Shown here piece by piece: positions 11,232 through 30,728 of a stretch of DNA of 64,000 bases. The translations under genes and the position numbers were made by a program. Source of the DNA: Chthoniobacterales bacterium (GTDB lineage: Bacteria > Verrucomicrobiota > Verrucomicrobiia > Chthoniobacterales > UBA6821); NCBI GenBank assembly GCA_036824855.1, contig DAISZK010000009.1:1296-65295 (forward strand), given 5' to 3'. Each line of letters starts with the position of its first letter. Position 1 is the first letter of the stretch. The notes beneath the pieces were generated by a model, which did not search any database, was not told where the DNA came from, and saw nothing but the letters and a program-made list of their open reading frames with translations.

Positions 11232-11608
11232 TGACCGATCTGGGCGCTGTAGGCTTCGGGTATCAGGAGAGCACTGATCTCAGCGGCATCGGATGATTTC
11301 ATCCGGTAGATCCAGCCTTGGCCGAAGGGATCGGTATTCAGCAGAGCCGGGTTACCCAAGAGCTCCTCATTCACCTCGGTCACCGTCCCGGAGAGAGGTG
11401 AATAGATATCGCTAGCAGCTTTTACTGATTCAACGACGGCAGCAGTCGCGCCAGCCTTCACCTCGGCACCGACCTTCGGTGGCTCTGCATAGACGATATC
11501 CGTCAACTCAGCCTGAGCGTGATCGGTGATGCCGACGGTCACAGTGTCACCCTCGACTCGGATCCATTCGTGGGTTTTGGCGTAGCGAAGATCAGCGGGA
11601 ACGTTCAT
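11228..11608 (-). CDS. gcvH: Glycine cleavage system H protein
   Basis: [20 protein letters not shown] lipoyl-lysine motif, SPLSG. Confidence 0.99.
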
Positions 11609-11630
11609 GGATTCAAAGAATACGGAGGGT

Positions 11631-12746
11631 TTAGAGGGTGGGTTTCTTGTAAAAAGGGAGTGTCGTTACCGTAGCGGGGTAACGACGTCCACGCACTTCA
11701 ATTTCCAGAGACGTGCCGGGAGCATGAAGTGCAGGAGGAAGGTAGGCCATGGCGATCCCCTCGCCGAGGCTGGGCGAGAGAGCACCGCTGCAGGTTTCAC
11801 CCACGGCAATTCCCTCGGCAAGAACAGGATAATGGGAACGGAGGGGAGGTCCGGAGGCGGAAAGCTTCAGCGGGGTGAGACGAGAGGAAAGACCGCCAGC
11901 GCGCTGCTGCTCCAGGGCCTTGCGGCCGGAAAACTCACCCTTCTCGGGATCATCAATACCCGTGAATTTATCAAGGCCCGCCTGAAGAGGTGTACGCTCA
12001 CGGGAGAGATCGGATCCGTTCAAAGGGTAACCCATCTCGAGCCTTAGTGTATCACGGGAACCGAGTCCGCACGGCTTGACCCCAGCGGAAAGAAGGCTCT
12101 CCCAGAGAGCGATGCCAGCTTTCACAGGCACAAAAAGCTCAAATCCATCCTCACCGGTATATCCGGTGCGGGCCACAAGGGATGGGATGGCCCCCTCAGA
12201 ATCGACAAGCGGGGCAATACCATTCCTCTTCGGGACATCGCATGAAGGAAAGAGTGACCTCAGAACCTTTTCCGAATCGGGCCCCTGGAGGGCAATCGCA
12301 GCATAGTCATTCCCCTGATCCTCAAGAACGATAGATCCATCGGCAGGAAGTTGAGAGCGCATCCATTCCAGATCGAGATCACGGCAGGCGCCGTTGATCA
12401 CCAGAAAGTAGGAGGTCTCTCCCGTGCGGTAGATGATCAGATCATCGATGACTCCTCCCTTCTCATCGAGCATGAGGGTGTACTGACCGCGGGTGACGGC
12501 GAGTTTGCCAACGCGGTTGGTCAGAAGACTCTCAAGCCAAGCCAAAGCGGCGGGACCTGAAACCGTGACCTCTCCCATGTGGGAAATATCGAACATACCG
12601 GAGGCGGATCGCACGGCTTTATGCTCATCCATGATTCCAGAATACTGGACAGGCATGAGCCATCCGCCGAACTCGACCATGCGGGCCCCGCAGGCGATAT
12701 GAGCGGCTTCGAGAGGAGAATGTTTTAGAAGCGTGGGATCACTCAT
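11631..12746 (-). CDS. gcvT: Glycine cleavage system aminomethyltransferase T
   Basis: FGGWLMPVQY, FDISHMGE, RTGYTGEDGFE, GLGSRDTLRLEMG. Confidence 0.98.
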   Translation of the reverse strand: MSDPTLLKHSPLEAAHIACGARMVEFGGWLMPVQYSGIMDEHKAVRSASGMFDISHMGEVTVSGPAALAWLESLLTNRVGKLAVTRGQYTLMLDEKGGVIDDLIIYRTGETSYFLVINGACRDLDLEWMRSQLPADGSIVLEDQGNDYAAIALQGPDSEKVLRSLFPSCDVPKRNGIAPLVDSEGAIPSLVARTGYTGEDGFELFVPVKAGIALWESLLSAGVKPCGLGSRDTLRLEMGYPLNGSDLSRERTPLQAGLDKFTGIDDPEKGEFSGRKALEQQRAGGLSSRLTPLKLSASGPPLRSHYPVLAEGIAVGETCSGALSPSLGEGIAMAYLPPALHAPGTSLEIEVRGRRYPATVTTLPFYKKPTL

Positions 12747-14719
12747 TACGCCTTATCTGTTGTTGTGGAAGAGGAACTCATCGAGCCGTTGGGGCGGCGA
12801 GCGTTGAAATCCAGATATGTGTAGGACTGGAACATCTTCTCGTATTCATCAGCAAGGCGCATCGCCTCGTTGGGTTTGAGACGATCCCCCTTCAGGGCGG
12901 CATCAGCTTGGGACTTAATCCTGCGGGCCAGCTCCTTGGTATCCCACTGAGTCAGAGTCAGCACCTGGTCGATGGTATTGCCCGGGAGCACCTCCTCGAT
13001 GTAGTACCCGGCATCCTCATCCTCATCGAGGAAGACATGCATCTCATTCACCCTACCGAAAAGGTTATGCAGATCACCCATGATGTCCTGATAGGCTCCG
13101 GAAAGGAAAATCCCGAGGTAATACGGCTCGCCGGGACGGACGGTGTGGACAGGAAGAGTCTCCTTCACATCTTGGAAATCGATGAACTTGGCCATCTTGC
13201 CGTCGGAATCACAGGTGATGTCGACCAGGGTGCCACTACGCTCAGGAACCTCATTGAGTCGGTGGATCGGCATGACCGGAAAGAGCTGACCCAATGCCCA
13301 ATGATCAAGCAGGGACTGGAACACGGAGAAGTTACAGAGTAGCTGATCGGCAAGAGCAACCTCGAGTTCCCTCACCTCTTCGGGAACCTGCTTCATCCCG
13401 GCGTGCAGTTTTACGATCGCAGCGGCAATCTGCCAGTAGAGGGTGTCAATCTTTGCCTTGGAGCGGAGGTCAAGGAGTCCTAGGTCGAACATCGACTGAG
13501 CCTGATCCCTGATCTGCTGGGCATCGTGAAGATTTTCCAAGCGACGCTTCTCATTGAGGCCAGCCATGATCTCAAGCATGTCGGAGACCAACTTGGGATC
13601 CTCCGGAGAGGCAGAAATCGTACCCGTATGACTCTGCTTCTCGATGGAACCGAAGGCTTCGATAATGAGTACGGAATGAGGAGCCACGATGAATCGTCCG
13701 CTCTCACTCACGATGACGGGATGCTCGACCTGCTCTGAGTCGCAGATCTCCATGATGTTGTAGACGATGTCTCGAGTGTACTCGTGGAGTGAGTAGTTTC
13801 TGGAGCTGTCGAAGCTGGTGCGCGATCCATCGTAGTCGACTCCGAGTCCACCACCCACGTCGAGATAGCCGAGGGCATGGCCCATCTTTTTGAGCTTCGC
13901 GTAGAAGCGGGCGGCCTCACGCGTAGCGCGACTTATCGTCTGAATGTCAGGGACCTGCGAACCGACATGGTAATGAAGAAGAACGAGAGCATCGGGCATC
14001 CCCTCGGCATGGAGCGTGTCACTCATCGAGACAAGATCTGCTGTCGAGAGGCCAAACTTGGCATTTTCTCCACCGCTGGTGGCCCATTTGCCAGCTCCCT
14101 TCGAGAGAAGGCGTACGCGGGCACCGATCATGGGCTTTACTCCCACCTGCTTCGCAACGGCAAGGATCTGATGAAACTCCTCCAACTTCTCCACGACGAG
14201 AATGACTTTCTTACCAAGCTTGATCCCGATGAGTGCAGCGCGGATGAACTCATCGTCCTTGTAGCCATTACCGACCACAAGACTCTCGGGATCAGAATGG
14301 ACGGCAAGAGCGGCTATTAACTCGGGCTTACTTCCAGCCTCGATGCCAAAATGATAAGGGAGGCCCGCATCCACGATCTCTTCAACGACTTCGCAGAGTT
14401 GATTAACCTTGATGGGAAAAACCCCGCGATACTTATTCTTGTATCCGCACTCCGTAATAGCTCTCGCAAATGACTCATTGAGCCGACGCACACGATCACG
14501 AAGCAGGTCATGACACCGGACCAGCAGAGGAAAACGGAGACCTCGATCCTTCGCCTCCTCGACCAGTTCCATTAGGTCGATTTCCTCCCCTTCCCTGCGG
14601 CGAGGAAGCATGATGGCGTGCCCAGCATCATTGATTCTGACGTATCCCTCGGACCATCCCTCCACGTTGTAGAGCGATGAATTCTGGGCAGTGATGGATC
14701 CGGCGGAGTCTTGGGACAT
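12746..14719 (-). CDS. speA: Biosynthetic arginine decarboxylase
   Basis: GVFPIKVNQ PLP lysine, EAGSKPE, SGGENAKFGL, HYHVGSQ, DVGGGLGVDYDG, DITCDSDG, GAYQDIMGDLHNLFG. Confidence 0.97.
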   Translation of the reverse strand: MSQDSAGSITAQNSSLYNVEGWSEGYVRINDAGHAIMLPRRREGEEIDLMELVEEAKDRGLRFPLLVRCHDLLRDRVRRLNESFARAITECGYKNKYRGVFPIKVNQLCEVVEEIVDAGLPYHFGIEAGSKPELIAALAVHSDPESLVVGNGYKDDEFIRAALIGIKLGKKVILVVEKLEEFHQILAVAKQVGVKPMIGARVRLLSKGAGKWATSGGENAKFGLSTADLVSMSDTLHAEGMPDALVLLHYHVGSQVPDIQTISRATREAARFYAKLKKMGHALGYLDVGGGLGVDYDGSRTSFDSSRNYSLHEYTRDIVYNIMEICDSEQVEHPVIVSESGRFIVAPHSVLIIEAFGSIEKQSHTGTISASPEDPKLVSDMLEIMAGLNEKRRLENLHDAQQIRDQAQSMFDLGLLDLRSKAKIDTLYWQIAAAIVKLHAGMKQVPEEVRELEVALADQLLCNFSVFQSLLDHWALGQLFPVMPIHRLNEVPERSGTLVDITCDSDGKMAKFIDFQDVKETLPVHTVRPGEPYYLGIFLSGAYQDIMGDLHNLFGRVNEMHVFLDEDEDAGYYIEEVLPGNTIDQVLTLTQWDTKELARRIKSQADAALKGDRLKPNEAMRLADEYEKMFQSYTYLDFNARRPNGSMSSSSTTTDKA

Positions 14720-14867
14720 TGAGGATAAATTGATGAGTAAAAATTAAAACAAACATGCCCTGTCTTGGCGACATGATGCTTTAGTTTTTTTGCATTGCCG
14801 TTTCCCATGACAGTAGATGTGAATGGGTGCTCGGAAGAATCCCTTCGACAACCAGAATCTTACCATC

Positions 14868-16175
14868 ATGAAACTCCTTCATATCGATGCATTTGCCGGG
14901 ATTAGTGGCGACATGTCCGTTTCGGCACTCAGAGATCTCGGAGTTCCGGAGGAGATTTTTAGCAATGCATTGAAGGCATTGCCAATCGATCTGCCACCCT
15001 GCTGCTTCGAGCGCAGCGAAAGAAATGGCATCGCAGGTTGGCGCTTTTTGGTAAGTGGACATGACGGCCACGAGGGAGCACCTGCTGATCATCACCATCA
15101 CGAGCACAGTCATGAGCATCATCATGTGGTGCACGACCACCACCATCACGGCGATGGAGATCACCATGAGCATGATCATAACCATGGCTCTGCTGGTCAT
15201 CACTTCCATGGACGTAATCACGCCGAGATCGTAGCTTTGATCAGTGGCAGTAACCTCGGAGAGAAGGTAAAAACACGCGCCCTTGCCGTTTTCCAGCGGA
15301 TCGCCATCGCAGAGGGAGGAGTGCACGGAGTCCCCCCAGAAAATGTCGGATTTCACGAGGTCGGGGCGGAGGACTCGATCGCCGATATCGTTTGTGCTTG
15401 TGCAGGAATTGATTACTTAAAGATCGATAAGATCACGTGCGGTCCGTTGATCGAGGGCACCGGGCATATCCACTGCGCTCATGGAACTTTCCCCCTACCA
15501 GCACCAGCCACCCTGGCGATTCTCAAGGGAATACCTTTTCGACAGGTCGATGAACCTTGGGAGCACATCACTCCAACAGGTGCAGCGATTCTGGCAGAGT
15601 TTGCCACGGCTTTTGTGCCAATGCCCGAGATGAAGGTGAACGCTATCGGATACGGACTCGGCTCGCGAAACACCCCGAATCGCCCCAATGTTCTCCGTCT
15701 GATTCTGGGCAAATCCACAGAATCCGATCATGCAACCTTGGAAGAGGTCGTCGAACTACGCTGCAATCTGGATGACCTCACACCCGAGCATGCCTCCAGT
15801 GCACTCGATGCATTGATCACAGCGGGAGCACTCGATGCGACGCTCACGCCGACAGTCATGAAAAAGGGTCGTTCCGGTTGGATCCTGGAGGTTCTTACCG
15901 TGGCGGAGAAAGCTGAGGATCTATCCGAACTGATGCTGCGCCAAACAAGCGCCTTCGGTATCCGTCGACACCACATGGAGCGATTGAAACTCGAGCGGCA
16001 TTTCGAAGAGGCCGAGACACGCTATGGAAATATCCGAGTCAAGGTGGGTACACTTGGCGGTGAGGTCATTCAGCGTTCACCCGAGTTCTCCTCCTGCGCG
16101 GAGGCTGCAGTTCACCATCAAGTGGCCGTCAGACTGGTCTATGAAGCCGCTCTGCGCACCCTAGCCGAAGATTAG
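14868..16175 (+). CDS. larC: Nickel pincer cofactor biosynthesis protein LarC (DUF111) with long His-rich insert
   Basis: DAFAGISGDM, FHEVGAEDSIADI, PAPAT, TPTGAA, NLDD..PE, MKKGR, PEF; start moved to MKLLHID at 14868. Confidence 0.9.
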   Translation: MKLLHIDAFAGISGDMSVSALRDLGVPEEIFSNALKALPIDLPPCCFERSERNGIAGWRFLVSGHDGHEGAPADHHHHEHSHEHHHVVHDHHHHGDGDHHEHDHNHGSAGHHFHGRNHAEIVALISGSNLGEKVKTRALAVFQRIAIAEGGVHGVPPENVGFHEVGAEDSIADIVCACAGIDYLKIDKITCGPLIEGTGHIHCAHGTFPLPAPATLAILKGIPFRQVDEPWEHITPTGAAILAEFATAFVPMPEMKVNAIGYGLGSRNTPNRPNVLRLILGKSTESDHATLEEVVELRCNLDDLTPEHASSALDALITAGALDATLTPTVMKKGRSGWILEVLTVAEKAEDLSELMLRQTSAFGIRRHHMERLKLERHFEEAETRYGNIRVKVGTLGGEVIQRSPEFSSCAEAAVHHQVAVRLVYEAALRTLAED

Positions 16176-16189
16176 AAGAATCGTTACTC

Positions 16190-17011
16190 CTATTCCTCGT
16201 CTTCGGTCGTTCCGCCATTCCCCCGGACAGGTTTAGCTGCGCAGACCCCACGCTTCTTGGCAGAGGCGATGAAATCGAGAAAGTACTGTGCCTCGGGACC
16301 CCATGTTTCCTTTCTCGATTCCTCAAGAGCCTGAGAAATATTCCGGCCACTGTGATAGATCAGGCGGAATGCCCGCTTGATCTCAAGACGCGTCTCGGAA
16401 CTCATCCCGGCGCGCTTGAGGCCGACAGCGTTGATACCGGCTACCATGCTGGTCCCATAAGCAGAGACAAAAGGAGGGATATCCTTCGGGAAGCGCTCCC
16501 CTCCCCTGACCATGCAGAGTTTGCCAACACGCAGGAACTGGTGGAAAACCGAGCCACCCCCGAGAACCGCTCCATCCTGAACCTCGACATACCCAGCAAG
16601 GAGGCAATTATTGGCAATGATCACCTTGTTGCCGACCGAGCTGTTGTGACCGAGATGGACCCCCACCATCAGGAAGTTTTTGTCTCCGACGCGGGTGACT
16701 GACCCCTCCTTGGTGCCGCGGTGGATGGTGACGTATTCGCGGATGACATTGTCATCACCGATGACCACCTCACTCTTCGTGCCGGGCTTAAAATCGTAAT
16801 CCTGAGGATCAGCTCCAACAATGGCCCCATATCCCACGGTATTTCTGGCACCCATGCGCACATGGCCTGTGATCACAGCATGAGCCTGAATCTGACATGC
16901 CTCGCCGATGACAGCTCCGGCCTCAATGATCACCCCTGGACCAACCTCCACATCGGAGGAAACTTCGGCGGCAGGGTCAACGAAAGCGGAGGGGTGAATC
17001 TTAGACATCAA
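16190..17011 (-). CDS. lpxA: Acyl-ACP--UDP-N-acetylglucosamine O-acyltransferase
   Basis: IHPSAFVD, hexapeptide repeats, DPQD, IREYVTIHRGT, HLGHNS, HQF, GINAVGLKR. Confidence 0.93.
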   Translation of the reverse strand: MMSKIHPSAFVDPAAEVSSDVEVGPGVIIEAGAVIGEACQIQAHAVITGHVRMGARNTVGYGAIVGADPQDYDFKPGTKSEVVIGDDNVIREYVTIHRGTKEGSVTRVGDKNFLMVGVHLGHNSSVGNKVIIANNCLLAGYVEVQDGAVLGGGSVFHQFLRVGKLCMVRGGERFPKDIPPFVSAYGTSMVAGINAVGLKRAGMSSETRLEIKRAFRLIYHSGRNISQALEESRKETWGPEAQYFLDFIASAKKRGVCAAKPVRGNGGTTEDEE

Positions 17012-17053
17012 AAATAAATTATGAGGGATAAAGGATAAATTATGAAGAATGAA
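17012..17053. repeat. Heptamer repeat (reverse orientation of TTCATCC family) directly upstream of lpxA
   Basis: AAATAAA TTATGAG GGATAAA GGATAAA TTATGAA GAATGAA. Confidence 0.75.
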
Positions 17054-17139
17054 AAGATCCTGAACTTCTCTTCCTCCTCCCCAAGGGCAGTTCCCTACGG
17101 CAAACCATGCTCTTCCGCGCGGGATTGGTTCCCGATCCC

Positions 17140-17835
17140 CTAAATCAGTCCCGCCTCACGGAAACTAAAATATGGTGATTGATCCCTCCTCACCGCCCCA
17201 ATGATGACATGATCAACCAGCGGAATCTGTAATAGCGTGCCGGCTTCCGTCAGTCGGCGTGTAAGACGTCTGTCCGCCTCACTTGGCTGAGGATCTCCCG
17301 AGGGATGATTATGAACAATAGCAATGGCATACGCTCCCTTGGCGATGGCTGGACGAAAGATCTCACGCGGATGGGCGATACTCTCGTTCAGGCTACCTCG
17401 AGAGACTTCACGATGCTCCAGAAGGCCGTGACGGGTATCGAGCAGAAGCACTCGCAGGGATTCGTAAGGAAGTATTTCCATCTCACGAGCTAGCAGTCGG
17501 TGAATTACCCCGGCTCGGTCGATTCTGGGGCGCTCCACCTCGGGGAGTGCCATTCGACGACCCATCTCAAAAGCAGCCTTGAGTTCCGCAGCCTTGGCTG
17601 GCCCCATGCCGGGAAGCAAGGAAAGCTCCTCTACTGAGCATCCCGCTAATCGTCGCAGACTCCCCCACTCAACCAACAAGGATTTGGCCAGAGACATGAC
17701 ATCCAACCCGACTTTGCCAGTTCGAAGAAACAGAGCCAGCAACTCGGCATCAGTAAGCACGGAGGCCCCATGACTGAAAAGTCGTTCACGTGGCCTCTCG
17801 GTCCGGGGAAGGTCCCCAAAGCATGAAGAGATCAT
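17140..17835 (-). CDS. radC: RadC family protein (UPF0758, JAB domain), full-length form
   Basis: ERPRERL..GA..L.DAELLA, HhH GMGPAKA, HPREIF, HNHPSGDPQPSEAD, DHVII. Confidence 0.95.
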   Translation of the reverse strand: MISSCFGDLPRTERPRERLFSHGASVLTDAELLALFLRTGKVGLDVMSLAKSLLVEWGSLRRLAGCSVEELSLLPGMGPAKAAELKAAFEMGRRMALPEVERPRIDRAGVIHRLLAREMEILPYESLRVLLLDTRHGLLEHREVSRGSLNESIAHPREIFRPAIAKGAYAIAIVHNHPSGDPQPSEADRRLTRRLTEAGTLLQIPLVDHVIIGAVRRDQSPYFSFREAGLI

Positions 17836-17923
17836 TGTGAAAACTAGGCTAAGTTTTTCAAGTCACAAGGGACAATGTCATTGAATCAATCAACTAACCT
17901 TAATTGACTTTTCTAATTCTTCC

Positions 17924-18127
17924 TCACTCTTGCGCTGAAAAACCAAGATCCTCGGAGGATTCCTTGCCGAGGGGTTCGCGAGGAACGGAAACTTGGGTAG
18001 TTACACTCATCGGCTCATCTCCAACGAGGGATTCCGAAGCCTCTGTGATTGGGTTTGATTCTTCGGTACCTTCAGCGCGATAGCACCTGCTGTAGGATCT
18101 GAATCCTGAACTTCTTTTCCAAGGCAT
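17924..18127 (-). CDS. Small acidic hypothetical ORF, possibly frameshifted
   Basis: 67-aa ORF from track with Glu/Ser-rich C-terminal half; no recognisable motif. Confidence 0.3.
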   Translation of the reverse strand: MPWKRSSGFRSYSRCYRAEGTEESNPITEASESLVGDEPMSVTTQVSVPREPLGKESSEDLGFSAQE

Positions 18128-18355
18128 GATGATTTCTCACGATCATGGTGTATCAGTTCTAGGGGTCACGGGTATCTCCCGTGCAGTTTCAAATTTACTA
18201 CCAATCCAGAGCAAAAAAAAGAAAATCCGCTTGTCCCAATCCAAAATGTAACGGTGGGAACAAAACAAGGAGGCTAGCATGACTTACGGTCTCTCTCCCC
18301 GCTTTAGAACCCTTGGCGGGGGTAATAGGCTGCGATGAGGCAGAGAACCTCAGAG

Positions 18356-18958
18356 TTATTTCATCAGGGCAAAACCAATGAATCCGAGCAGGAAAGCTAA
18401 ACCGGTGAAGAGAAATGCATAGCGCTGTCTGAGGATCTTCAGATCACGGATGTAGGCGAGCTGCATGATCTCGGCTGCAAGATCCAGCAGCATCCGATCG
18501 CAGGTCTTGGGAATCTCGCCGACAAACTTTTCAACACTCATCGTGGAGCGGACCTCCTTACGCCTGAACAAGGCATCGATGAAATTCAGACGAAACAATC
18601 CTGCGGCGTAGAAGGTATTAAAATGCCCGGTTCCTGTCGCATGGTAGTGCGTCCCTCCGATACCGCTCAAGGTGAGCACGGAAAGAAGGATTCCAAGCCC
18701 ATAAGAGATAATGGCCAGGGTAAAGAAGACGGAAGCATAAGAGATACCGCTGGAATGTGCCTCAATATAGCGCTCGGCCACATCTTTGAGCGGAAAAGCC
18801 AAGGCAGCCAGAAGGATACCGATCTTGGCATCGACAGCCCGAATCGTTCCCTGAATATCCTTGATCGACTCAAGACCCCATGCCAAAGCAGCTCCTTCAT
18901 CGGTCTGACGATCGACCGAGACGACCAACCGCTCGAGAGAAGACTCACTTGTTGTCAT
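18356..18958 (-). CDS. Pycsar effector family (PycTM/DUF5706-like) membrane protein
   Basis: IQGTIRAVDAKIGILL (DxK motif then TM1), second TM, ..TFY.., helix EIMQLAYIRDLK with conserved Lys, terminal TM; layout matches my recollection of the PycTM family. Confidence 0.72.
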   Translation of the reverse strand: MTTSESSLERLVVSVDRQTDEGAALAWGLESIKDIQGTIRAVDAKIGILLAALAFPLKDVAERYIEAHSSGISYASVFFTLAIISYGLGILLSVLTLSGIGGTHYHATGTGHFNTFYAAGLFRLNFIDALFRRKEVRSTMSVEKFVGEIPKTCDRMLLDLAAEIMQLAYIRDLKILRQRYAFLFTGLAFLLGFIGFALMK

Positions 18959-18986
18959 CTCTGGATCGCTTTGGCTCTTCTGAGAC

Positions 18987-19361
18987 TCAGGAATTTGCAG
19001 CCTCTTTCTGAAGCTTATTCATGTGACGAAGACGATCCGCAAGAACCTTCATGACATGAGTGGCGAAGAACGGGTTTTGGCCGATCATGAAGTTGAATCG
19101 GCGCTCATCGACCTTGGCGAGCTTCGCGGAGTCCTTGGCAACCACGGTGGCGGTTCTTGGAGACTGGTCGATGAGGGCCAATTCACCCAGAATCGCACCA
19201 CGTTCAGAGTGCTCGACGGCTTTGCCACCAACAATGACATCCACGGATCCCTCGAGCAGGACATACATGCAATCTCCAGCCTCCCCCTCACTGAAGAGGA
19301 TCTCTCCGGGGGCTAGATTCGTGGTATCCGTGTCGTGGGAGAAGAGGTTTGCTGGATTCAT
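18987..19361 (-). CDS. Stand-alone cyclic nucleotide-binding domain protein
   Basis: GEILFSEGEAGDCMYVLLEG, phosphate-binding cassette GELALIDQSPRTATV, C-helix; no HTH. Confidence 0.93.
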   Translation of the reverse strand: MNPANLFSHDTDTTNLAPGEILFSEGEAGDCMYVLLEGSVDVIVGGKAVEHSERGAILGELALIDQSPRTATVVAKDSAKLAKVDERRFNFMIGQNPFFATHVMKVLADRLRHMNKLQKEAANS

Positions 19362-19500
19362 GTAGGGAGAAAATGACGAAGGGTTTCACATGACAAGCCA
19401 ATAATGATGGATCATCATGCCGTGTATCGGAAATGGAACCTTCATCCGTAAAATTTCGTTCCTGACAGGAATAAGCCACATCATATTCTGACACATTGTC

Positions 19501-21009
19501 ATGAAAAAATTGTCCCATCAGCTGGCGGCCCTTCTCTTGGCCTTTTTCGTAGGTATGATCGCGTTCGGCATCTACTCGAACTATTGCCTGATTCGCACCT
19601 CATCCAAGATTTCCGCAGCCGAAGCGAAGGCACGGGTCAATGGCGACATCTACAACAGGATCGTGCTTACCAAGGACCTTCTGGCCGATGTCCTTCCACC
19701 GCCAGCCTACTTGATCGAAAGCTACCTCATGGCCCTTCGCCTGATCGACTCGTCAGACAAGTCAGAAAAGGAAATGCTCATCGGACAGATCGGCCGCCTG
19801 CACAAGGAATTCAACGAATCCTTTGAGCACTGGAACAAAGACCTCCCCAAGGGGCAACTCAGGGATTCCTTTCTCAACTCTGCGGAGGCCGGAAGGAGCT
19901 TTTTTGAGATCTTGGAAAAACAGCTGATACCCGCAGTGACCTCGGGGAACAATGCCCTCGCCAAGGAAATCGCCCAAAAAGGTCTTCTCGAAAAATACAA
20001 CACCCAGCGGGCGGAGATCGACAAGGTGGTGGCCCATGCCAATGAGGAGAGCGATGCCACCAAAATGGAATTGAACAAAACCCTTACCGAAAGTCATCAG
20101 GAGACCTCCAGGCAGATCACCTCATCCATCTGGGAAAGCATCGTCGCCATCGCGATCGTGATGATCGGATGCGGTCTGGCCGGTTTCTGGATTGCGGCAA
20201 GGATTACCCGATCCATCCGTCATACGGCGCTGACAATGGAGGATATCTCAGCACCTCTTGCCCAAGCTTCACGGGATGTCTCCACATCGAGCCTCTTGCT
20301 GGCCGAGGGTGCCAATGAGCAGGCATCCGCACTGGAGGAAACGTCGGCCTCCCTGGAGGAGATGTCCAGCATGGCAAAGAACAACGAGGACCAGACCCAG
20401 AAATGCCAGCATTGGATGAGCGACGCCAGCGAAGTCGTTGCCAAGGTGGACAAACTTCTCCGTGAGACGGGCCATGCGATCACCGAAATCAACCGCTCAA
20501 GCGAGGCCACAAGCAAAATCATTAAGACAATCGATGAAATCGCCTTCCAAACCAATATTCTAGCCCTCAATGCAGCCGTCGAGGCGGCACGCGCCGGAGA
20601 GGCCGGTCTGGGCTTCGCTGTCGTCGCTGACGAGGTGAGAAATCTCGCCATGCGAAGCGCCCAAGCGGCGAAAGAGACAGGCGAATTGATATCGACCGCC
20701 GAAAAAGCTGCCCTTCATGGAAACGAACTCATCGTCCTGACTCAGGAAGGATTTACATCCAACGTGGAGTTTTCCGAAAAAATCAGACACGCGGTCGATG
20801 AGATCGTCTCGGCCGGCAGGGAGCAGGCACGGGGCATCACCCAAATCAGCTCGGCGATGAACCAGATAGAGCGTGTAACTCAGAGCACCGCCGATCATGC
20901 AAAAAGATCTGCGAATGCTTCGGAACAACTCGCCGAGCAGGCGAACCGCATGGAATCTTCTGTCGAGGAACTACTCGAGTTAGTCGGGGGAAAAAGGCAA
21001 AAGCTTTAA
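19501..21009 (+). CDS. Methyl-accepting chemotaxis protein (TM-periplasmic helical sensor-TM-signalling domain)
   Basis: Two TM segments; [40 protein letters not shown] hairpin tip; [15 protein letters not shown] methylation helix. Confidence 0.93.
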
Positions 21010-21080
21010 GAGCAGCCCAGCACGATGCAATCTTTTCCCTTCAAAGTTGGTAATCCCTCAAATCTGAAACAGAAAACACG

Positions 21081-22211
21081 ATGAACACCCCTGAAAGCAA
21101 AACTTTCCCTAGACAGGATGTCGGGGAAAAATCATCCGCCCGCACAAAGGGGGTCGCCGATGGTCTCCGGCAGATAGGTGATTTAGCCGAATCAGTGGCA
21201 GGCCAATTTCGGAAGGCGGTCAATGAAATTGAACGCATCAACCTTCAGACCAAAATCCTCTCTCTAAACGCTCAGATCGAGGCTGCCCGTGCTGGTACCG
21301 TAGGCAATGCCTTTGGAGTGGTTGCAATGGAAATGGTCAATCTTTCAGGTCAGACCGCCGAGGTGACAAATACGCTGGCCACAGAGACACAATGGAATAT
21401 CTCATCGCTGAACAAGGTGATCGATGACTTGGGCCGGGATATCCGTGGTACGCGCCTTTCCGATTTGGCGATGATGAATATTGATGTCATCGATCGGAAT
21501 CTCTACGAGCGTTCCTGCGATGTCCGCTGGTGGGCGACTGACAGTAGCGCGGTCGATGCTCTCTCAAGCGATTCAGTGATCGCCCGCGAACATGCCTGCA
21601 AGCGACTGGGCGTGATTCTGGATTCTTACACGGTATATTTTGATATCGTCTTATGTGACCTTTCGGGCCGGGTGGTCGCGAACGGTCGCAAAGAAAAATA
21701 CCATAGTATTGGCAGCGATCAGACGCACACCGAATGGTTCCAATCCGCCATCAAGACAACCGAAGGAACAGAATTTGGGTTCCAGAATGTCCACCGATCC
21801 CCCACCCTTGCAGATGGCCAGCACATCCTGGCTTATTCATGCGGTGTGCGCGAAAAGGGCGATGCTCGCGGTAAATTAATCGGTGTCATTGGCATCCTCT
21901 TTAACTGGGAAGCACTCGGACAATCAATTGTCTGTAATACCATGATTAGTGAGACGGAGAAAGCCAGCACCCGAATCTGTATCGTGGACGAAAAGGGCCT
22001 GATTCTGGCCGATAGCGATAACCAAATCATCAGGGAGACCCTGAGTCTACCGGGCCAGCATGAGCTGTTTGCAGGCAAAAAAGGCCATGTGGTTGAAAAA
22101 TACAAAAATCAAGCCGTACTCATTGCCCATGCCTTTTCACCAGGCTTTGAAACCTATGCTACTGGTTGGCATTCTCTGATTATCCAAAAACTTGAACTAG
22201 AGCAAAAGTAG
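21081..22211 (+). CDS. Cytoplasmic MCP-like protein, N-terminal signalling hairpin plus C-terminal Cache-like domain
   Basis: INLQTKILSLNAQIEAARAG..G..FGVVA at N-terminus; DRNLYERSCDVRWWATD; Y.DIVLCDLSGRVVA; no TM helix. Confidence 0.82.
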   Translation: MNTPESKTFPRQDVGEKSSARTKGVADGLRQIGDLAESVAGQFRKAVNEIERINLQTKILSLNAQIEAARAGTVGNAFGVVAMEMVNLSGQTAEVTNTLATETQWNISSLNKVIDDLGRDIRGTRLSDLAMMNIDVIDRNLYERSCDVRWWATDSSAVDALSSDSVIAREHACKRLGVILDSYTVYFDIVLCDLSGRVVANGRKEKYHSIGSDQTHTEWFQSAIKTTEGTEFGFQNVHRSPTLADGQHILAYSCGVREKGDARGKLIGVIGILFNWEALGQSIVCNTMISETEKASTRICIVDEKGLILADSDNQIIRETLSLPGQHELFAGKKGHVVEKYKNQAVLIAHAFSPGFETYATGWHSLIIQKLELEQK

Positions 22212-22327
22212 TGTTTTTAAATTGCAACAGGTGAACATTCATTACGGCTGCAGTGTATGTCGAATTTGTAACCCAAGGAGGTGAAATAAGACTCTCCGAG
22301 GTTATCCTCCACACTTAGGCTAAACAA

Positions 22328-23830
22328 ATGCATTTCTTACTCGCAGACTTCGCATCCGTGGGTCTTGGAACCTGGGCGCTTCTAGGAATAGCTCTTCTCC
22401 TTGCCCTAGCCTTTGAGTTCGTCAACGGATTCCATGACACCGCCAATGCGGTTGCGACCGTCATCTACACCCACACGCTTCCTGCGGTGCCGGCGGTCAT
22501 CTGGTCAGGGTTCTTCAACTTCCTCGGTGTGCTCACCTCCACAGGAGCGGTTGCTTTCAGTATCGTGAATCTCCTTCCTGTGGAGTTGGTAATTCATGTG
22601 GGCTCGGCCGCCGGATTCGCAATGGTCTTTTCCCTACTGCTCTCGGCCATCATCTGGAATGTCGGCACATGGTACTTCGGCCTGCCCGCATCCTCATCCC
22701 ATACCCTTATTGGATCGATCATCGGTGTCGGTGTCGCCAACGCCCTCATGAGTGATTCCCACTACTGGGGTGATGGCGTCAACTGGTCGAAGGCCAAGGA
22801 AGTCGGCATGGCCCTGATCATCTCACCGGTCATCGGATTCTGCATGGCTGCGCTCCTGCTGATCGTGATGAAGATCCTCATCAAGAATCCGAAGCTCTAT
22901 GAGGCCCCCGATGCCCATCATCCCCCACCAGGATGGATCCGAGCCCTGCTGATGTTCACCTGCACCGGTGTGAGCTTTGCTCATGGATCCAATGACGGAC
23001 AAAAGGGTATGGGTCTTATTATGCTGATCCTAGTCGGACTTCTCCCAACAACCTTTGCACTCAAGAGCGAGAGCACCGAAAATGAACTCATTGCACTCAA
23101 GAGTCAGTTGAAAGCTTGTGTCTCCTATTGCAGCAATCAGGAAAAGGGGGCGGATCCTGACTATGTGAAAGATGATCCGGCAAATGTCATCACCACCTTC
23201 CTGCGCGGCCATCACTCAACATCCCCGGAACTCTTCCGCTCCGTGGAAACGATCGCCTCCAGAAGCCTTCAACAGCTGGGCGGCATTAAATCACTCAGCC
23301 AGGTTCCGGAACAGGATCGCGGTTCTCTCAGGGCGGATCTCTATTTAATCTCCTCAGTATCCTCCAAGCTGGCAAGGAACCATCAACTCGGCTCCCCTGC
23401 TGCTGAAAAAGAGGCTAGAAAAATCTCCTCAACCATCAGCAGTGTCACCAACTTCATCCCTGTCTGGGTGAAGGTGGCCGTGGCACTGGCGCTGGGGTGT
23501 GGCACGATGATCGGATGGAAGCGCATTGTGGTCACTGTGGGTGAAAAGATCGGCAAGACTCACATGACCTATGGTCAGGGGGCGGCAGCAGAACTCGTCG
23601 CCATGTTCACGATCAGTCTTGCGGACATGCTGGGGCTTCCCGTCAGTACAACGCATGTCCTCTCCTCGGGAGTGGCCGGAACCATGGCAGCAAACGGATC
23701 CGGACTTCAGATGGCGACCGTGAGGAATATTCTCATGGCTTGGGTCCTGACGCTTCCCGTCTGCGTCTTCCTAGGGGCAGCTCTCTTTGCGCTCGGTCTG
23801 AATCTGATTGCAAGGCTAGGCTTCCAGTAA
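22328..23830 (+). CDS. pitA: Inorganic phosphate transporter, PiT family
   Basis: NGFHDTANAVAT, PASSSHTLIG, FAHGSNDGQKGMG, PVSTTHVLSS. Confidence 0.96.
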   Translation: MHFLLADFASVGLGTWALLGIALLLALAFEFVNGFHDTANAVATVIYTHTLPAVPAVIWSGFFNFLGVLTSTGAVAFSIVNLLPVELVIHVGSAAGFAMVFSLLLSAIIWNVGTWYFGLPASSSHTLIGSIIGVGVANALMSDSHYWGDGVNWSKAKEVGMALIISPVIGFCMAALLLIVMKILIKNPKLYEAPDAHHPPPGWIRALLMFTCTGVSFAHGSNDGQKGMGLIMLILVGLLPTTFALKSESTENELIALKSQLKACVSYCSNQEKGADPDYVKDDPANVITTFLRGHHSTSPELFRSVETIASRSLQQLGGIKSLSQVPEQDRGSLRADLYLISSVSSKLARNHQLGSPAAEKEARKISSTISSVTNFIPVWVKVAVALALGCGTMIGWKRIVVTVGEKIGKTHMTYGQGAAAELVAMFTISLADMLGLPVSTTHVLSSGVAGTMAANGSGLQMATVRNILMAWVLTLPVCVFLGAALFALGLNLIARLGFQ

Positions 23831-23886
23831 GGAGGATCACCCCACGTCTGATTATAAAAGCTGCTTGATCGCGGCATTGATATTAC

Positions 23887-24420
23887 GTGATGTCCCTTGG
23901 TTCAGAATCCCCTCTCAAAATCCTCCTTGATCGTGCCGCCATCCAGAGGCGGGTAGAAGAATTGGGCGTTCAGATCTCCAAGGAACTTTCCGGAAGCGAT
24001 CTCTGTGTCATGCCGGTCATGGATGGGGGCATGATCTTCGCGGCTGATCTTGTACGAGAGATCCATCTTCCCCTCGCGATCACTCCAATCAAGGCCTCCA
24101 GTTACGGTGATGCCACCGCAAGCTCCGGCGCCGTTTCACTCCCGTTTGGAATCCCTGAAAGAATCGAGGGGAAAGATCTTCTCTTTGTGGATGACATCCT
24201 CGACACGGGGCTGACTCTGAATGTCTTGAGGGAAAAGTTAACCGAATTTGGAGCCAAAACCATCCGCACCTGCGTTCTCCTCCGGAAGGAATCATCCCGG
24301 CATCTCACGGCAGACTACTTGGGATTTGAAATCCCGGATAAATACGTCGTCGGGTACGGACTCGATCATGCGGGCCTCTACCGAAATCTTCCGGATATCG
24401 GAGTGATGGCTGAAGAATAG
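23887..24420 (+). CDS. hpt: Hypoxanthine phosphoribosyltransferase
   Basis: SSYG, LFVDDILDTGLTL PRPP motif, YVVGYGLDHAGLYRNLP. Confidence 0.93.
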   Translation: MMSLGSESPLKILLDRAAIQRRVEELGVQISKELSGSDLCVMPVMDGGMIFAADLVREIHLPLAITPIKASSYGDATASSGAVSLPFGIPERIEGKDLLFVDDILDTGLTLNVLREKLTEFGAKTIRTCVLLRKESSRHLTADYLGFEIPDKYVVGYGLDHAGLYRNLPDIGVMAEE

Positions 24421-24448
24421 GTCAGCCAACTCACGTTCTCTGAGGTCA

Positions 24449-25597
24449 TCACTTCCCGTTCACTCCGATCACTTTCCCACCATACCCAGTGAGTTCAAGA
24501 TAACCCTCCGCGGTCACGGGATCATTACCGGACCTCCCCTCTCCCCGAACGGCACCTTCCCAGTAGGCGAAGGGAGCCAGGACGAGTTCCTGATCCTTGA
24601 GTTTGGGAGTCAGTGAAAGAGTTAGTTTCCTTGAGGGAATACTGACTTCCATTCCAGCCGGATAGAGCCCTCCGGTGTGAGGACTCTTCCAGGTGCCTTG
24701 AGGTGTTATCTCCAGATCATGCAGATCGGTCACCACACCTTGAGGATCGCGGAGGGTGCCGGAGAGGAAGACTGTCTTCCCCTCGGAATTCCTAATTCGG
24801 AAGAGCATGAGATCATCCCCGTTGCTTAAGTGAAGTCCCGACCAATCCCAGCCTGCCTCACCCGCCTCGAGAGAGTTAGTAGCCCATTCGTGGTCAAACC
24901 AGACGAGTCCACTCACCTTGTAAACCTTGCCATCAATTGTCACTGAACCCGAGGCTCGAACCCTGGTGAGGGAGTAGTAGTGGGAAGCATGACCAGGAAT
25001 TGATGACTTGGGGCTGATTCCATCATGCCCATGGATGAGTGGGGGACGATCAGAAACCAACACTAGATCAATGGACCTCTCGACTCCGGCCTTAGTCACT
25101 CCGTCGGACTTGAGATGGAAGGAGCCATCGGGAAGCTGTTCCATGAGCCAGCCTTCCATCCAGGCCATGCGGCGACCGGATCCCCCATTTCCAGAAGGCG
25201 ATCCGAATCCAGCCTCACCGAAGGCACCCCGCGAAGAGCATTGATAATAGCGAAAAGTCTTCCCCGAGACATCCGTGAAGGCGAAATGAGCGAAAGGAAG
25301 GTCCATCACCCGGAATCGGGAGGAACCGGCAGGCTTCTCCCCGGGACGGATTTCTTGTCGAAAGAAGGTCAGCTGAAAGCCGTATTCGTGCCCTTGCTCA
25401 TCGGAGAGATTACCCGTGGCATACCACCACTCAGTCTTAAAGGAGCGGTGCGGCCCATGATCCCTTGGGAACTCGTAGCTCCAACCGGGTTGAGCACTCT
25501 TCCACCCCTCACTGATCGCACTCTCCTCGGCGCGAATCAGATGCGGAGCGAGGAGGAGTGGGACTAGTAGACAAAGGGCTCTGAGGGAGCAGGACAT
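24449..25597 (-). CDS. Lipocalin-like / CrtC (AttH-type hydroxyneurosporene synthase-like) family secreted protein
   Basis: FPRDHGPH, KTEWWYATG, FQLTFFR, SHYYS, WFDHEW, GWDW, DQEL..YWEGAV, GYLELTGY. Confidence 0.85.
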   Translation of the reverse strand: MSCSLRALCLLVPLLLAPHLIRAEESAISEGWKSAQPGWSYEFPRDHGPHRSFKTEWWYATGNLSDEQGHEYGFQLTFFRQEIRPGEKPAGSSRFRVMDLPFAHFAFTDVSGKTFRYYQCSSRGAFGEAGFGSPSGNGGSGRRMAWMEGWLMEQLPDGSFHLKSDGVTKAGVERSIDLVLVSDRPPLIHGHDGISPKSSIPGHASHYYSLTRVRASGSVTIDGKVYKVSGLVWFDHEWATNSLEAGEAGWDWSGLHLSNGDDLMLFRIRNSEGKTVFLSGTLRDPQGVVTDLHDLEITPQGTWKSPHTGGLYPAGMEVSIPSRKLTLSLTPKLKDQELVLAPFAYWEGAVRGEGRSGNDPVTAEGYLELTGYGGKVIGVNGK

Positions 25598-26547
25598 TCC
25601 TCGACTTTGGTTGCCTCAAGCACTGCCGTACGTCTACCACCCTCCATGGGGAAGGTCGGCTTGCCTGTGATTTTGAGCCATCCCATTTCGGAAACCTTGA
25701 TCGGCTTCGGGTACTGAACGGTGACACCTACTGGCTTGGCATCGGCGGCACAGCAAGTGATGAACATTCGGATGGCCTGGAAGCGGTCTCCCTTCGGATT
25801 ACCCGTGGTCATCGGAACGTACTGACCGACGATTTCCACATCTTTGCCCTCAAACTCCCCACGATACGAAGGCATCTGCACGGCATAGAGCATATCGATG
25901 ACTTGAAGTGGCATCGGACCTCCGGAATAGGAGGTTTGATCAGATGGAGTTGCGTTGGTGACCTGATCTGTCGAAGGGTTATTCAAAGAGGTATTTGAAG
26001 GAGTAGCGAGGGCCAGACTCTTGCTAGCGGAAGAGGAAGCGGGAGATGCCGAAGCTCCAGCCTTTGCCGAGGGGAGATTATTGATGTTATCGACGACGCC
26101 CCGGTTCTGAACCGTGGTGATTGAGTAAGCTGTGGCCTTCCCCGAAACGATGATTGCCAAAGGGAGAAGCAGCAGGATGGTCTTGAAAATCATCGCTCCC
26201 ACTCCACCCCCAGTGCCGTGATGATGATGCTCGTGGGATTCAGTCTCGCCATGACCATGGCCGTGAAGACCATGCTGCTCCCCAAGGGGGTGATGATCAC
26301 AGCCGCACTCGTGATGCTTATGCTTATACGTATGTCTTGAGAGAGGAAAAACTGAGCTGAACCCGAAAATCGAAAGCAACAGGAAGACCACACCGGAAGC
26401 CGTGGTGTAAGGCTGAAGCGAGGGGTGGAGATAGATGGAAAGCTGTCCTGAGAAGGAGAGCCAGAGAACGAATCCACCCCAGAGCAGGAGTAGGAGGGAA
26501 TCCCGGAGTCCCTTGATGGAGAATGAGGCTGTGTCGGAGTGATTCAT
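25564..26547 (-). CDS. TIGR03943/DUF1980 family putative permease subunit with His-rich loop
   Basis: N-terminal TMs, YLHP, His tract, RMFITCCAADAKPVG, GWLKITG; start moved to MNHSDT. Confidence 0.85.
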   Translation of the reverse strand: MNHSDTASFSIKGLRDSLLLLLWGGFVLWLSFSGQLSIYLHPSLQPYTTASGVVFLLLSIFGFSSVFPLSRHTYKHKHHECGCDHHPLGEQHGLHGHGHGETESHEHHHHGTGGGVGAMIFKTILLLLPLAIIVSGKATAYSITTVQNRGVVDNINNLPSAKAGASASPASSSASKSLALATPSNTSLNNPSTDQVTNATPSDQTSYSGGPMPLQVIDMLYAVQMPSYRGEFEGKDVEIVGQYVPMTTGNPKGDRFQAIRMFITCCAADAKPVGVTVQYPKPIKVSEMGWLKITGKPTFPMEGGRRTAVLEATKVEECPAPSEPFVY

Positions 26548-26554
26548 GAGGTGA

Positions 26555-27487
26555 TCACCAAGCAAGATTCAGGGTGGAGAGTCTCCAACAGAGAAGACCA
26601 ATTACCACGAAGAGACCAAGCGCGAGCACGATGATAAAGCGCTTGGAGAAGGCCGCTCCGTAGAGAAAGAGGAGTTTGAAATCGAGCATCGGGCCGAACA
26701 CCAAAAAGGCGAGTTTGGCAGCCATCGGGAACGTGGTGAGCGTCGCCGCAATGAAGGCGTCCGTTGTGCTGCAAACCGAGAGGACAGAGGCGAGTCCCAT
26801 CAGGGAGACAATGGCCAGCGGAGGGTTCGCCGCCAGAGGAAGAATGATTTCCTGATTCACCGCCGTGCTGAAGAGAGAGGCGGCAGCAGCACCAATGACG
26901 AAAAAGACCGCCACATCGAGGAAATCCTTCGTTGCAACCAAGGAGGCATTCTGCAGTCGATCAAGCATCCCTCCCGATCCGCCATGATGATGATCATGGT
27001 CGTGGTCGGGACTCAGGAGACCTGGTCGGAGAATCGATGCAGGTGAGCAGTAACTGACGACCCAACCAGCCAAGATGGCAACCGAGAGTCCAAGTCCAAA
27101 CCTGAGAATGGTCATCTCCCAAGCCCCCTGCCCTCGGAATGCCGCAAGTGTGCTCAGGATCACCAATGGATTGACGATTGGGGCGGCAAGCATGTAGGTG
27201 ACGCCGCACGAAACAGGCAGACCCTTCTTAAGAAGACGCCTCACGACCGGAACAATGCCACACTCACAGACAGGGAAGATCACTCCGAGCAGTCCACTGA
27301 CCACGATGGCAACTCGTGGATTCTTCGGAAGCAAGCGTGTCATCAGCGACTGCGGCAAGAATTCCTCCAGCAAACCGGAAAGGATCGCCCCCCCGAGCAG
27401 GAAGGGCAAACCCTCGAGCAGTATGCTCAGGAAAGCATACTGAAAGTCGGGAAAGCTGAACGTGAACCAGGCAATGGCAAGCATCAC
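26555..27487 (-). CDS. Predicted permease (ArsP_1/DUF318 family)
   Basis: LEGLPFLL, FPVCECGIVP, APIVNP, SVCSTTDAFIA, LVFGPMLD. Confidence 0.9.
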   Translation of the reverse strand: MMLAIAWFTFSFPDFQYAFLSILLEGLPFLLGGAILSGLLEEFLPQSLMTRLLPKNPRVAIVVSGLLGVIFPVCECGIVPVVRRLLKKGLPVSCGVTYMLAAPIVNPLVILSTLAAFRGQGAWEMTILRFGLGLSVAILAGWVVSYCSPASILRPGLLSPDHDHDHHHGGSGGMLDRLQNASLVATKDFLDVAVFFVIGAAAASLFSTAVNQEIILPLAANPPLAIVSLMGLASVLSVCSTTDAFIAATLTTFPMAAKLAFLVFGPMLDFKLLFLYGAAFSKRFIIVLALGLFVVIGLLCWRLSTLNLAW

Positions 27488-27561
27488 GGTACCAAGATAG
27501 CAACAAGCCGGAGGAAGTCACCCCTCCGGCTTGCAACTGATGAAGATTTCCGAAGGAAGCC

Positions 27562-29535: not shown

Positions 29536-29632
29536 AAATAGAAGTGATAGCACAGACATCGGAAGAGCCTTTTGCAAGCTTCCATCCGAGACATTTTCGC
29601 CAAATTCTCGCCCAGAGAGAATTCCTGAACGA

Positions 29633-30679
29633 TTACGCTGGCTGCTGCTGGGTAAGGCAATGGAAAGCCCCCAGCCCCCAAATCAATTCCCTGCAATCAA
29701 TCGGCCGGATCATCCGTGTTGGGAAAAGCTCCGCAAGGATCTCCACGGCCTCCACATCGGAATCCCCCCCGAATGCGGGCATCAGAACGGATTCGTTGGC
29801 AATGTAGAAATTCGCATGACTGGCCGGCAAACGAATCCCCTCACGGTCGATTCGGGGCGGCATCGGCATTTCAATCACCTTGAGCGGCGTCCCGTCGTGG
29901 AGTTTCATTCCATGCAGTCGCTCCAGGTTTTCCTGCAGAGGGAGGTGGTTGGGATCGGCCTGATTCGGCTCCACCACGGTCACCACGGTGTCACGGGAAA
30001 CAAAACGTGTGATATCATCAACATGGCCATCGGTGTCATCACCTTCGATTCCGTCTCCGAGCCAGAGAATCTGTTCCACCCCGAGGTAATCACGCAGTCC
30101 TTGCTCGATCTGTTCCTTGGAGAGGGAGGGATTGCGATTAGGATTCAGCAGACACGATTCGGTGGTCAGTAAGGTTCCGTCGCCATTCGGATCAATCGAC
30201 CCACCCTCAAGAATGAAAGCGGGATGAAAAAGAGGTAAGCCGAAATACTGTGCAATCCTGGTCGGAACGACATCATCGGCCTCATAGGGAGGATACTTAC
30301 CTCCCCATGCATTGTAGCCAAAATCATTAATGGCAATGGTCGGAGACTGGTCCCTCTTGACAAAGATCGGACCATGATCCCGGCACCATGGCTCGTTTGT
30401 CGGGTTAGCATGGAACTCAATGCGCTCCATCGGAGCCTTGGAGGCCAAGAGGCTCCTTACCTCCCTCTCCTGATCAGGGTTGGAGATATTGATTCTTAGG
30501 ATTTCAGATTCCGCAAGTGCGACGGCCATCTTGACGAGCGTCGGCACAACCCGGTCATAACTCTCAGGAAAGCTCTGCCCATCCGCATGCGGCCAGGAGA
30601 TCCAAGTGGCCTCATGTCTCTCCCACTCCGCGGGCATGGAGTAGCCCAGAGAACGTGGCGTTGCGGAAGAGTCCGTCAC
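29633..30679 (-). CDS. aguA: Agmatine deiminase (peptidyl-arginine deiminase family)
   Basis: [47 protein letters not shown]; probable GTG start at 30679. Confidence 0.92.
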
Positions 30680-30728
30680 ACGAACCGGGATTGAAGAGGA
30701 GCGAGTAGAGCCTCCGGCGGAGAGACAA

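Follow-up and report, generated by a model that had tools for sequence, protein, structure and literature searches.

The gene pair and its setting

We examined a gene pair in a 64,000-nucleotide stretch of contig DAISZK010000009.1 from a Chthoniobacterales bacterium (Verrucomicrobiota), the whole of that stretch being called the window below. Both genes lie on the minus strand. The one transcribed first, at 18987..19361, encodes a 124-aa stand-alone cyclic-nucleotide-binding domain (CNBD) protein, identified from its open reading frame (ORF) and by Pfam; the second, at 18356..18958, encodes a 200-aa membrane protein of the pJV1-SpdB3 type with three transmembrane segments (3TM), identified by PADLOC, by tblastn and by its invariant residues, and called PycTM-like here for its resemblance to the membrane effectors of Pycsar phage defense. 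The 28-nt spacer between them (18959..18986, minus strand) is operon-like in length, and it is short in relatives too, at 14 nt in locus L014 and 4 nt in L010/L041.

A Pycsar system consists of a PycC cyclase and a PycTM effector (Tal et al. 2021, as summarized in PMC11224242). The window protein matches the PADLOC model for PycTM, PDLC02364, with an E-value of 7.2e-11, its residues 30-193 aligning to positions 11-147 of 160 in the model. A tblastn search against plasmids returned a hypothetical protein encoded on an Enterobacter plasmid (E 7e-8), whose gene overlaps by 4 nt the gene for a 257-aa "adenylate/guanylate cyclase". PADLOC scores this plasmid pair as PycTM (E 1.8e-11) and PycC (E 2.5e-11), so the score of the window protein is on a par with that of a PycTM from a canonical two-gene system. 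In a family alignment made up of the window protein, the plasmid PycTM and 15 distant representatives, D34, I39, D43, R171, K174 and R177 are invariant, while Q36, R40, K45, P56, F116, Y117, E163 and I170 are nearly so (Q36, R40, K45, E163 and I170 being at least 90% conserved). The window protein keeps every one of the invariant residues and shows both family motifs, N-terminal D-x-Q-x-T-I-R-x-x-D-x-K and C-terminal I-R-x-x-K-x-x-R, within which lie the DAK motif (D43-A-K45) and the helix segment I170-R-D-L-K174. Hydropathy marks hydrophobic segments at about residues 39-57 (weak), 77-95 and 181-199. Judged by profile and motif, the 200-aa protein is a true PycTM-family member. An exhaustive profile search found 701 representatives at E<=0.001; the best 150 of the 701 are nearly all single-domain proteins, mostly of 180-230 aa (range 136-267).

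Checks against PF18967, the Pycsar effector family in Pfam, gave results that depend on the model version. The 107-position model PF18967.5 of Pfam-A matches neither the window protein nor 17 homologs, and it likewise misses the canonical plasmid PycTM adjoining PycC, so the null result is uninformative and was dropped as evidence against membership; PF18967.6, in precomputed annotation, matches the window protein and its homologs. An AlphaFold2 model of the window protein is all-helical, with a mean pLDDT of 86.3. When that model was compared by Foldseek to the Protein Data Bank (PDB), no fold matched significantly (best E 0.19), and the family profile, run against the sequences of solved structures, gave no meaningful hit. 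The PDB search did not match the PucTM cryo-EM structure described in a 2026 preprint.

The small protein matches the Pfam family cNMP_binding (PF00027) over residues 15-95 with an E-value of 1.3e-17 (63.9 bits, against a cut-off of 27.5), and the Pfam scan finds no second domain. It comprises a beta-barrel, a phosphate-binding cassette and a C-helix, after which it ends, and carries no output domain. The cassette, FGELALIDQSPRTATV, is intact, and G59, E60, A62, L63, R69 and A71 are invariant across orthologs. Its nearest solved structures are the cyclic-nucleotide-binding domains of PKG and PKA, and it is also related in sequence to the CNBDs of bacterial cyclic-nucleotide-gated channels. Some sources label its orthologs CRP/FNR-type cAMP receptor proteins, with which it does share the nucleotide-binding beta-barrel and the phosphate-binding cassette; unlike those regulators, however, the window protein has no helix-turn-helix DNA-binding domain, and NCBIfam's CRP model matches it only in part, with a score far under the cut-off. 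A reading of cAMP versus cGMP preference from the residue following the cassette arginine was dropped, as that residue varies (T, A, G, V, S).

Cyclases were sought with a class III hidden Markov model (HMM) built from six diverse cyclases, which scored non-seed cyclases at 1e-58 to 1e-78 and PycC-sized cyclases encoded beside PycTM at 1e-5 to 1e-8. Applied to every six-frame ORF of 50 aa or more in the 64-kb window, the model detected no class III cyclase (best E 2.1), and tblastn with the cyclases of related loci found nothing there. Precomputed Pfam annotation lists no cyclase within 10 kb on either side of the PycTM-like gene (about 8358..28958); the outer parts of the window were searched for class III cyclases, classes I, II and IV not being covered there. 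The neighbors within 10 kb are transketolase, ArsP, HPRT, PHO4, two genes of the methyl-accepting chemotaxis protein (MCP) type, RadC, an LpxA-like acyltransferase, LarC, SpeA and GcvT/H/P, a housekeeping setting, and annotation over the same distance shows no defense or mobile genes around the pair. The structural claims of the initial annotation, made from the DNA alone, are thus borne out: two co-oriented genes 28 nt apart (coordinates exact, both on the minus strand), a 124-aa pure cyclic-nucleotide-binding domain with an intact cassette, a 200-aa 3TM protein of the Pycsar effector family with the DAK motif and C-terminal helix, and, as far as the class III search and the 10-kb annotation reach, no nucleotide cyclase in the window.

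Association with a chemosensory cyclase cluster in relatives

The PycTM subfamily to which the window protein belongs is small, forming 77 clusters at 90% identity, and its hosts are freshwater Spartobacteria (Verrucomicrobiota) and Eremiobacterota/Vulcanimicrobiota. The closest genome match is a Spartobacteria metagenome-assembled genome (MAG; L014/L062), in which PHO4 and 7 kb of upstream sequence are syntenic with 22328..31056 of the window at about 85-95% amino-acid identity. The synteny upstream of the pair, extending through an MCP gene, PHO4 and some 7 kb more, makes this the same locus in the relatives and in the window. That MCP gene (19501..21009, plus strand, divergent from the pair; Pfam MCPsignal E 9e-39) encodes a 502-aa protein that shares 85% identity with the MCP found upstream of CNBD-PycTM-CheA in L010/L041. 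By identity and position it is the ortholog of the MCP flanking chemosensory (Che)-adenylate-cyclase clusters in relatives, and shared synteny suggests a link to the pair; its dN/dS is 0.09.

In four relatives at 75-90% identity (L014/L062, L007, L040 and L010/L041), the pair lies directly upstream of a Che cluster. The order is CNBD, PycTM-like, CheA, CheW, MCP, CheR, CheB, CheX, a single-domain receiver (REC) protein, REC-cyclase and a metallo-beta-lactamase (MBL)-fold protein, to which the L062 cluster adds an ABC exporter bearing a CNBD at its C terminus and a REC-PP2C phosphatase. Every Spartobacteria contig at least 70% identical to the window protein has the CNBD and PycTM-like genes as a pair. 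Beyond that range the two may part company. At 67% identity (L011-13/L043), the PycTM-like gene heads the same cluster, in the same position, with no CNBD gene. At 53-60% (L005/6, L042, L044), it stands at the opposite, cyclase end and converges on the gene for the ABC-CNBD protein; L060 probably belongs to this type, its contig ending inside the PycTM-like gene with the ABC-CNBD side beyond view. In L064, a CNBD ortholog of 66% identity occurs at the cluster end without a PycTM-like gene. These head, tail and L064 arrangements show that the CNBD and PycTM-like genes associate with the cluster both jointly and separately.

The REC-cyclase of the cluster allows the messenger to be predicted. 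In class III cyclases, a Lys before TIGD and an Asp in YD(I/L)WG specify ATP, while guanylate cyclases have Glu and Cys at those two positions. The L014 protein, which reads ...EKIKTIGDCYMM... and ...KFTYDLWGDTVNVASRMES..., has the adenine-type residue at both positions (the Lys of KTIGDCYM and the Asp of TYDLWG), and the predicted messenger of the pathway is therefore cAMP rather than cCMP or cUMP. The MBL protein carries an HxHxDH motif (HTHWDH) and shows weak, sub-threshold similarity to RNase Z, PhnP and the NCBIfam "cyclic nucleotide-degrading phosphodiesterase", which is only a suggestion that it acts as a phosphodiesterase. Genes for the MBL hydrolase, an MsbA-like ABC-CNBD exporter and a receiver-PP2C (SpoIIE) protein follow the receiver-cyclase at 11612..16028 in L062 and 11628..14757 in L064. 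With these components the cluster looks like a self-contained module that would make, degrade and read cAMP.

Related receiver-cyclases are widespread in freshwater Verrucomicrobiota, Planctomycetota and Burkholderiales. Across loci L062-L139, identity is 73-81% between Verrucomicrobiota and Planctomycetota MAGs, and 53-59% to Limnohabitans, Polaromonas and other Burkholderiales, an unusually high conservation across phyla. This likeness suggests that the entire cluster has moved horizontally between freshwater bacteria, or else that contigs were mis-binned.

Conservation of the pair in the window lineage

The PycTM-like protein of L038 is 92% identical to that of the window, and in neither does a Che-cyclase block lie downstream. 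The two share about 400 nt after the PycTM-like stop codon, a region shared with L038 only, and RadC comes next in the window. The shared sequence contains a conserved ORF of 65-67 aa, which in the window (67 aa, MPWKRSSGFRSYSRCYR...; 17924..18127, minus strand) falls in the 520 nt that separate the PycTM-like gene from radC; the window ORF and its 65-aa counterpart in L038 have about 90% DNA identity over 313 nt. The 67-aa ORF matches nothing in Pfam or Rfam, and it marks the point at which the window and L038 part from the relatives with a Che cluster. The absence of the block is a derived state, since more distant relatives all have it; blastn and tblastx comparisons to L014, L041 and others reveal no scar of a Che cluster downstream of the pair.

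Could the pair, then, be a functionless remnant left when the neighboring cyclase cluster was lost? All close outgroups do have a Che-cyclase block following the pair, missing in the window and L038, and the initial annotation had offered as its own alternative an orphan effector left behind by cyclase loss. Sequence evolution contradicts that idea. Compared between the window and L038 (dS about 0.4-0.6), the CNBD gene has a dN/dS of 0.065, the PycTM-like gene 0.074 and PHO4 0.068; purifying selection on the pair is as strong as on the adjacent phosphate transporter, and it has held since the window and L038, neither of which has the block, diverged. The window arrangement is found in 17 contigs with both ORFs intact, and the family-invariant residues and the CNBD cassette are retained. 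We consider decay very improbable. The purifying selection and the 17 contigs argue instead that the pair is functional without an adjacent cyclase, and since the pair and the flanking MCP genes are under strong purifying selection, the cyclase is expected elsewhere in the genome.

The wider family and the question of phage defense

We sampled 16 loci of the wider PycTM family, and in 6 of them a cyclase of 250-290 aa is adjacent, the canonical Pycsar layout; Che genes occur in none. A soil contig, L045, encodes a cyclase-STAND-TPR protein, a PycTM-like gene whose start overlaps the cyclase stop, and a 121-aa CNBD protein 6 nt further downstream. The pairing here has the opposite gene order to that of the window and is an independent recurrence. 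Pairing of CNBD and PycTM genes without PycC, proposed in the initial annotation as something to look for in other genomes, thus recurs both in the Spartobacteria contigs of at least 70% identity and, independently, beside a STAND-cyclase in L045.

In Eremiobacterota, the PycTM subfamily lies near STAND-cyclases in several loci. Elsewhere, a PycTM-family gene follows clpB by 3-20 nt and precedes genes for chagasin and bipA in at least 13 Eremiobacterota/Vulcanimicrobiota contigs (clpB-type loci L016, L018, L021-L025, L027, L032, L047, L048, L053, L054 and L057), and another paralog sits between rpoA and trpD in three contigs (L026, L055, L056). No cyclase was found nearby at the clpB or rpoA loci. 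They place in the core genome a family that is otherwise known only from defense systems.

Such contexts bear on a second explanation, that the window pair is an abortive-infection module of Pycsar type served by a cyclase in trans, whether a remote host enzyme or a STAND-fused one, with the PycTM-like protein killing the cell and the CNBD protein serving as safety buffer or co-sensor. The membrane protein is after all a true PycTM-family member, the characterized members are anti-phage effectors, members of the same subfamily are encoded beside or near STAND-fused cyclases in Eremiobacterota-type contigs (L045, L143, L004, L015, L017 and others), and a 2026 preprint places the STAND-fused cyclase class in an "immune clade". 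An anti-phage role of Pycsar type was also how the initial annotation read the locus. That role fits poorly with what surrounds the pair and how it evolves: among housekeeping neighbors, with no cyclase, defense or mobile genes around it in the window, it keeps a stable chromosomal position and its synteny across species, and a dN/dS (0.065-0.074) equal to the phosphate transporter's gives no hint of rapid evolution. The closest relatives, moreover, tie the pair to a sensory Che-adenylate-cyclase cluster and not to PycC, and related copies are fixed after clpB or rpoA. We regard a defense function as unlikely.

A third explanation treats the two genes as neighbors by descent that work independently, the CNBD protein being a general Verrucomicrobial cAMP binder and the PycTM-like protein acting alone, perhaps free of any ligand. 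The CNBD family is in fact very widespread in Verrucomicrobia, with 699 clusters at E<=1e-10 that are about 70% identical, and its members mostly occur without PycTM, in unrelated contexts. Other neighborhoods include one rich in cyclic-nucleotide functions, with a CHASE2-cyclase and an MscS-CNBD gene, and two that are unrelated; an MscS-CNBD gene lies near the CNBD ortholog in L145. Conversely, the PycTM-like gene occurs without a CNBD gene in L011-13, L001-3, L140, L142 and most Eremiobacterota loci, and a CNBD gene accompanies none of the 16 wider-family loci. These same observations, together with the fact that canonical PycTM has no CNBD partner and that the window protein retains every family-invariant residue, leave unsupported the proposal in the initial annotation that a separate CNBD protein gates the membrane effector. 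Against full independence, however, all members of the clade of at least 70% identity have the two genes in the same direction and just 4-28 nt apart, adjacency arose separately and in reversed order in L045, and each type of gene is associated on its own with the same cyclase cluster. Independence of the two genes therefore strikes us as rather improbable, somewhat more so than a role in defense.

Proposed role in second-messenger signaling

We favor, while giving it no better than an even chance, an interpretation of the pair as one arm of a chemosensory-cyclase pathway, namely its receptor for a cyclic mononucleotide and its membrane effector, rather than as mobile phage defense. The two genes would form an operon for two cyclic-nucleotide-responsive proteins in physiological second-messenger signaling. 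Ancestrally in this lineage of freshwater Spartobacteria, the pair would have headed a Che-like chemosensory cluster of non-motility type, in which MCP receptors would control CheA, CheA would phosphorylate the receiver-adenylate cyclase, and the MBL-fold hydrolase would probably degrade the messenger. That messenger, predicted to be cAMP, would be read by the CNBD-fused ABC exporter, by the small soluble CNBD protein and by the PycTM-family membrane protein. The last most likely senses the nucleotide itself, as a canonical PycTM must in two-gene Pycsar; the retention of family-invariant residues and the fact that canonical PycTM needs only a cyclase both make this probable. It would then alter membrane permeability or ion flux through an oligomeric channel, and the small CNBD protein beside it could act as co-receptor or as a threshold-setting buffer. 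In the window lineage, the Che-cyclase block no longer stands next to the pair. The supposition in the initial annotation that the nucleotide is made elsewhere survives in spirit, with the likely source now being the REC-adenylate cyclase of the Che-like cluster seen in sister genomes. The functional coupling to the Che-cyclase, cAMP as ligand, the channel-like action, the role of the CNBD protein and a cyclase elsewhere in the genome are our inferences.

Several results weigh against this interpretation. CheA, CheW, CheR, CheB and the receiver-cyclase are all absent from the window by tblastn, which leaves two MCP genes only, so that coupling to a Che-cyclase comes from the relatives alone. 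Three relatives at 51-62% identity have no cyclase, CNBD or Che genes nearby. A related REC-cyclase occurs in 78 genome loci, nearly all of them in or beside Che genes, yet the PycTM-like gene is present at just one of the 78, on the L014/L062 contig; it is therefore a lineage-specific accessory and not a core part of the pathway. The head-of-cluster arrangement may go back by descent to one ancestral event, in which case the independent associations are few (at the head, at the tail and in the L045 triad). Nor does the CNBD reveal its ligand, because the residue after the cassette arginine varies among orthologs. Finally, the PycTM and PucTM proteins studied experimentally are all abortive-infection effectors.

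A broader evolutionary proposal, which we advance tentatively and would not expect to hold in full, is that a PycTM-family pore-former was recruited as a cAMP-gated physiological effector under chemosensory control, or else that such a protein was ancestral to the immune effector. The stand-alone CNBD protein would then be a separate regulatory subunit or a nucleotide buffer, and the wider Spartobacteria/Eremiobacterota subfamily without a dedicated cyclase would represent a core cellular gene, for example where it is operonic with clpB.

Comparison to known systems

Pucsar is the cGMP branch of Pycsar, and its effector EcPucTM has been reported as a hexameric channel-like assembly (bioRxiv 10.64898/2026.08.12.744502). 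That assembly is a plausible model for the window membrane protein, and its cylinder is what suggests nucleotide-gated permeability as the output. The window pair resembles Pycsar and Pucsar in its membrane protein, which HMM, BLAST and the invariant motifs held in common all assign to that 3TM effector family, and in the proposed logic of a cyclic mononucleotide acting on a small membrane protein. It differs from both in having no adjacent PycC or PucC, in its separate small CNBD gene, in a housekeeping or chemosensory setting instead of a defense island, and in the slow evolution of its genes. Unlike that of Pycsar, moreover, the cyclase in the relatives is of the receiver-domain adenylate type, with Lys and Asp at its specificity positions, and not a pyrimidine cyclase.

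Chemosensory pathways can also serve other functions in the cell (background in PMC3447774). In Pseudomonas, the output of Wsp is a REC-GGDEF protein producing c-di-GMP, and Pil-Chp controls cAMP through CyaB. The clusters in the relatives share with these the wiring of CheA/W/R/B and an MCP to a response regulator that makes a nucleotide messenger. Unlike Wsp and Pil-Chp, their output is a fusion of REC to a class III cyclase, and they have their own receptors (ABC-CNBD, small CNBD and PycTM-like proteins) and an MBL hydrolase. The comparison draws on the relatives, the CheA/W/R/B genes being absent from the window. A further parallel is with SthK, MloK1 and MscS-CNBD fusions, in which a cyclic-nucleotide-binding module is coupled to a membrane permeation protein, a coupling that is a proposal for the window pair; in those proteins the CNBD is fused to a known channel fold, whereas the window CNBD is separate and its partner has the PycTM fold.

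In the literature searched, PycTM is described only within Pycsar, Pucsar and mixed defense operons, and nothing was found that links the family to chemosensory clusters, to a separate CNBD protein or to fixed housekeeping positions. To date, the only role known for PycTM proteins is that of suicide effectors in phage defense by Pycsar and Pucsar. A slow-evolving subfamily, fixed in place and without a cyclase, would mean that the effector fold also serves everyday signaling, or that immune effectors were recruited from signaling. The pair offers a simple two-protein system for how a cyclic mononucleotide could gate a PycTM-like membrane protein, and it points to an uncharacterized, widespread freshwater pathway from Che proteins to cAMP with its own receptors and a likely phosphodiesterase. 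A non-immune, cAMP-gated role, if true, would be of clear interest.

Other features of the locus

The CNBD gene and the divergent MCP gene are separated by 139 nt (19362..19500), a region that presumably holds the promoters of both. A promoter scan finds no more than weak sigma-70-like matches, and the promoter and terminator scans give nothing above weak, background-level matches. An Rfam scan of 17000..20000 and a tRNA scan show no RNA element and no integration hallmark near the pair.

Beyond the MCP gene, a second gene on the plus strand (21081..22211) encodes a 376-aa protein in which Pfam recognizes MCPsignal at residues 16-100, the first half of a signaling domain, and dCache_1 at residues 151-357. 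The domain order is opposite to that of the usual receptor, and there is no evident transmembrane segment. The gene is found in window-type contigs only (L034, L035) and not at the same position in L014 or L041, and it is uncertain whether its product is part of the system.

Farther along on the other side of the pair, the gene for a LarC-type nickel-insertion protein (14823..16175, plus strand) encodes a long His-rich tract, HHHHEHSHEHHHVVHDHHHHGDGDHHEHDHNH, which gives rise to a spurious antisense overlapping ORF at 14781..15356.

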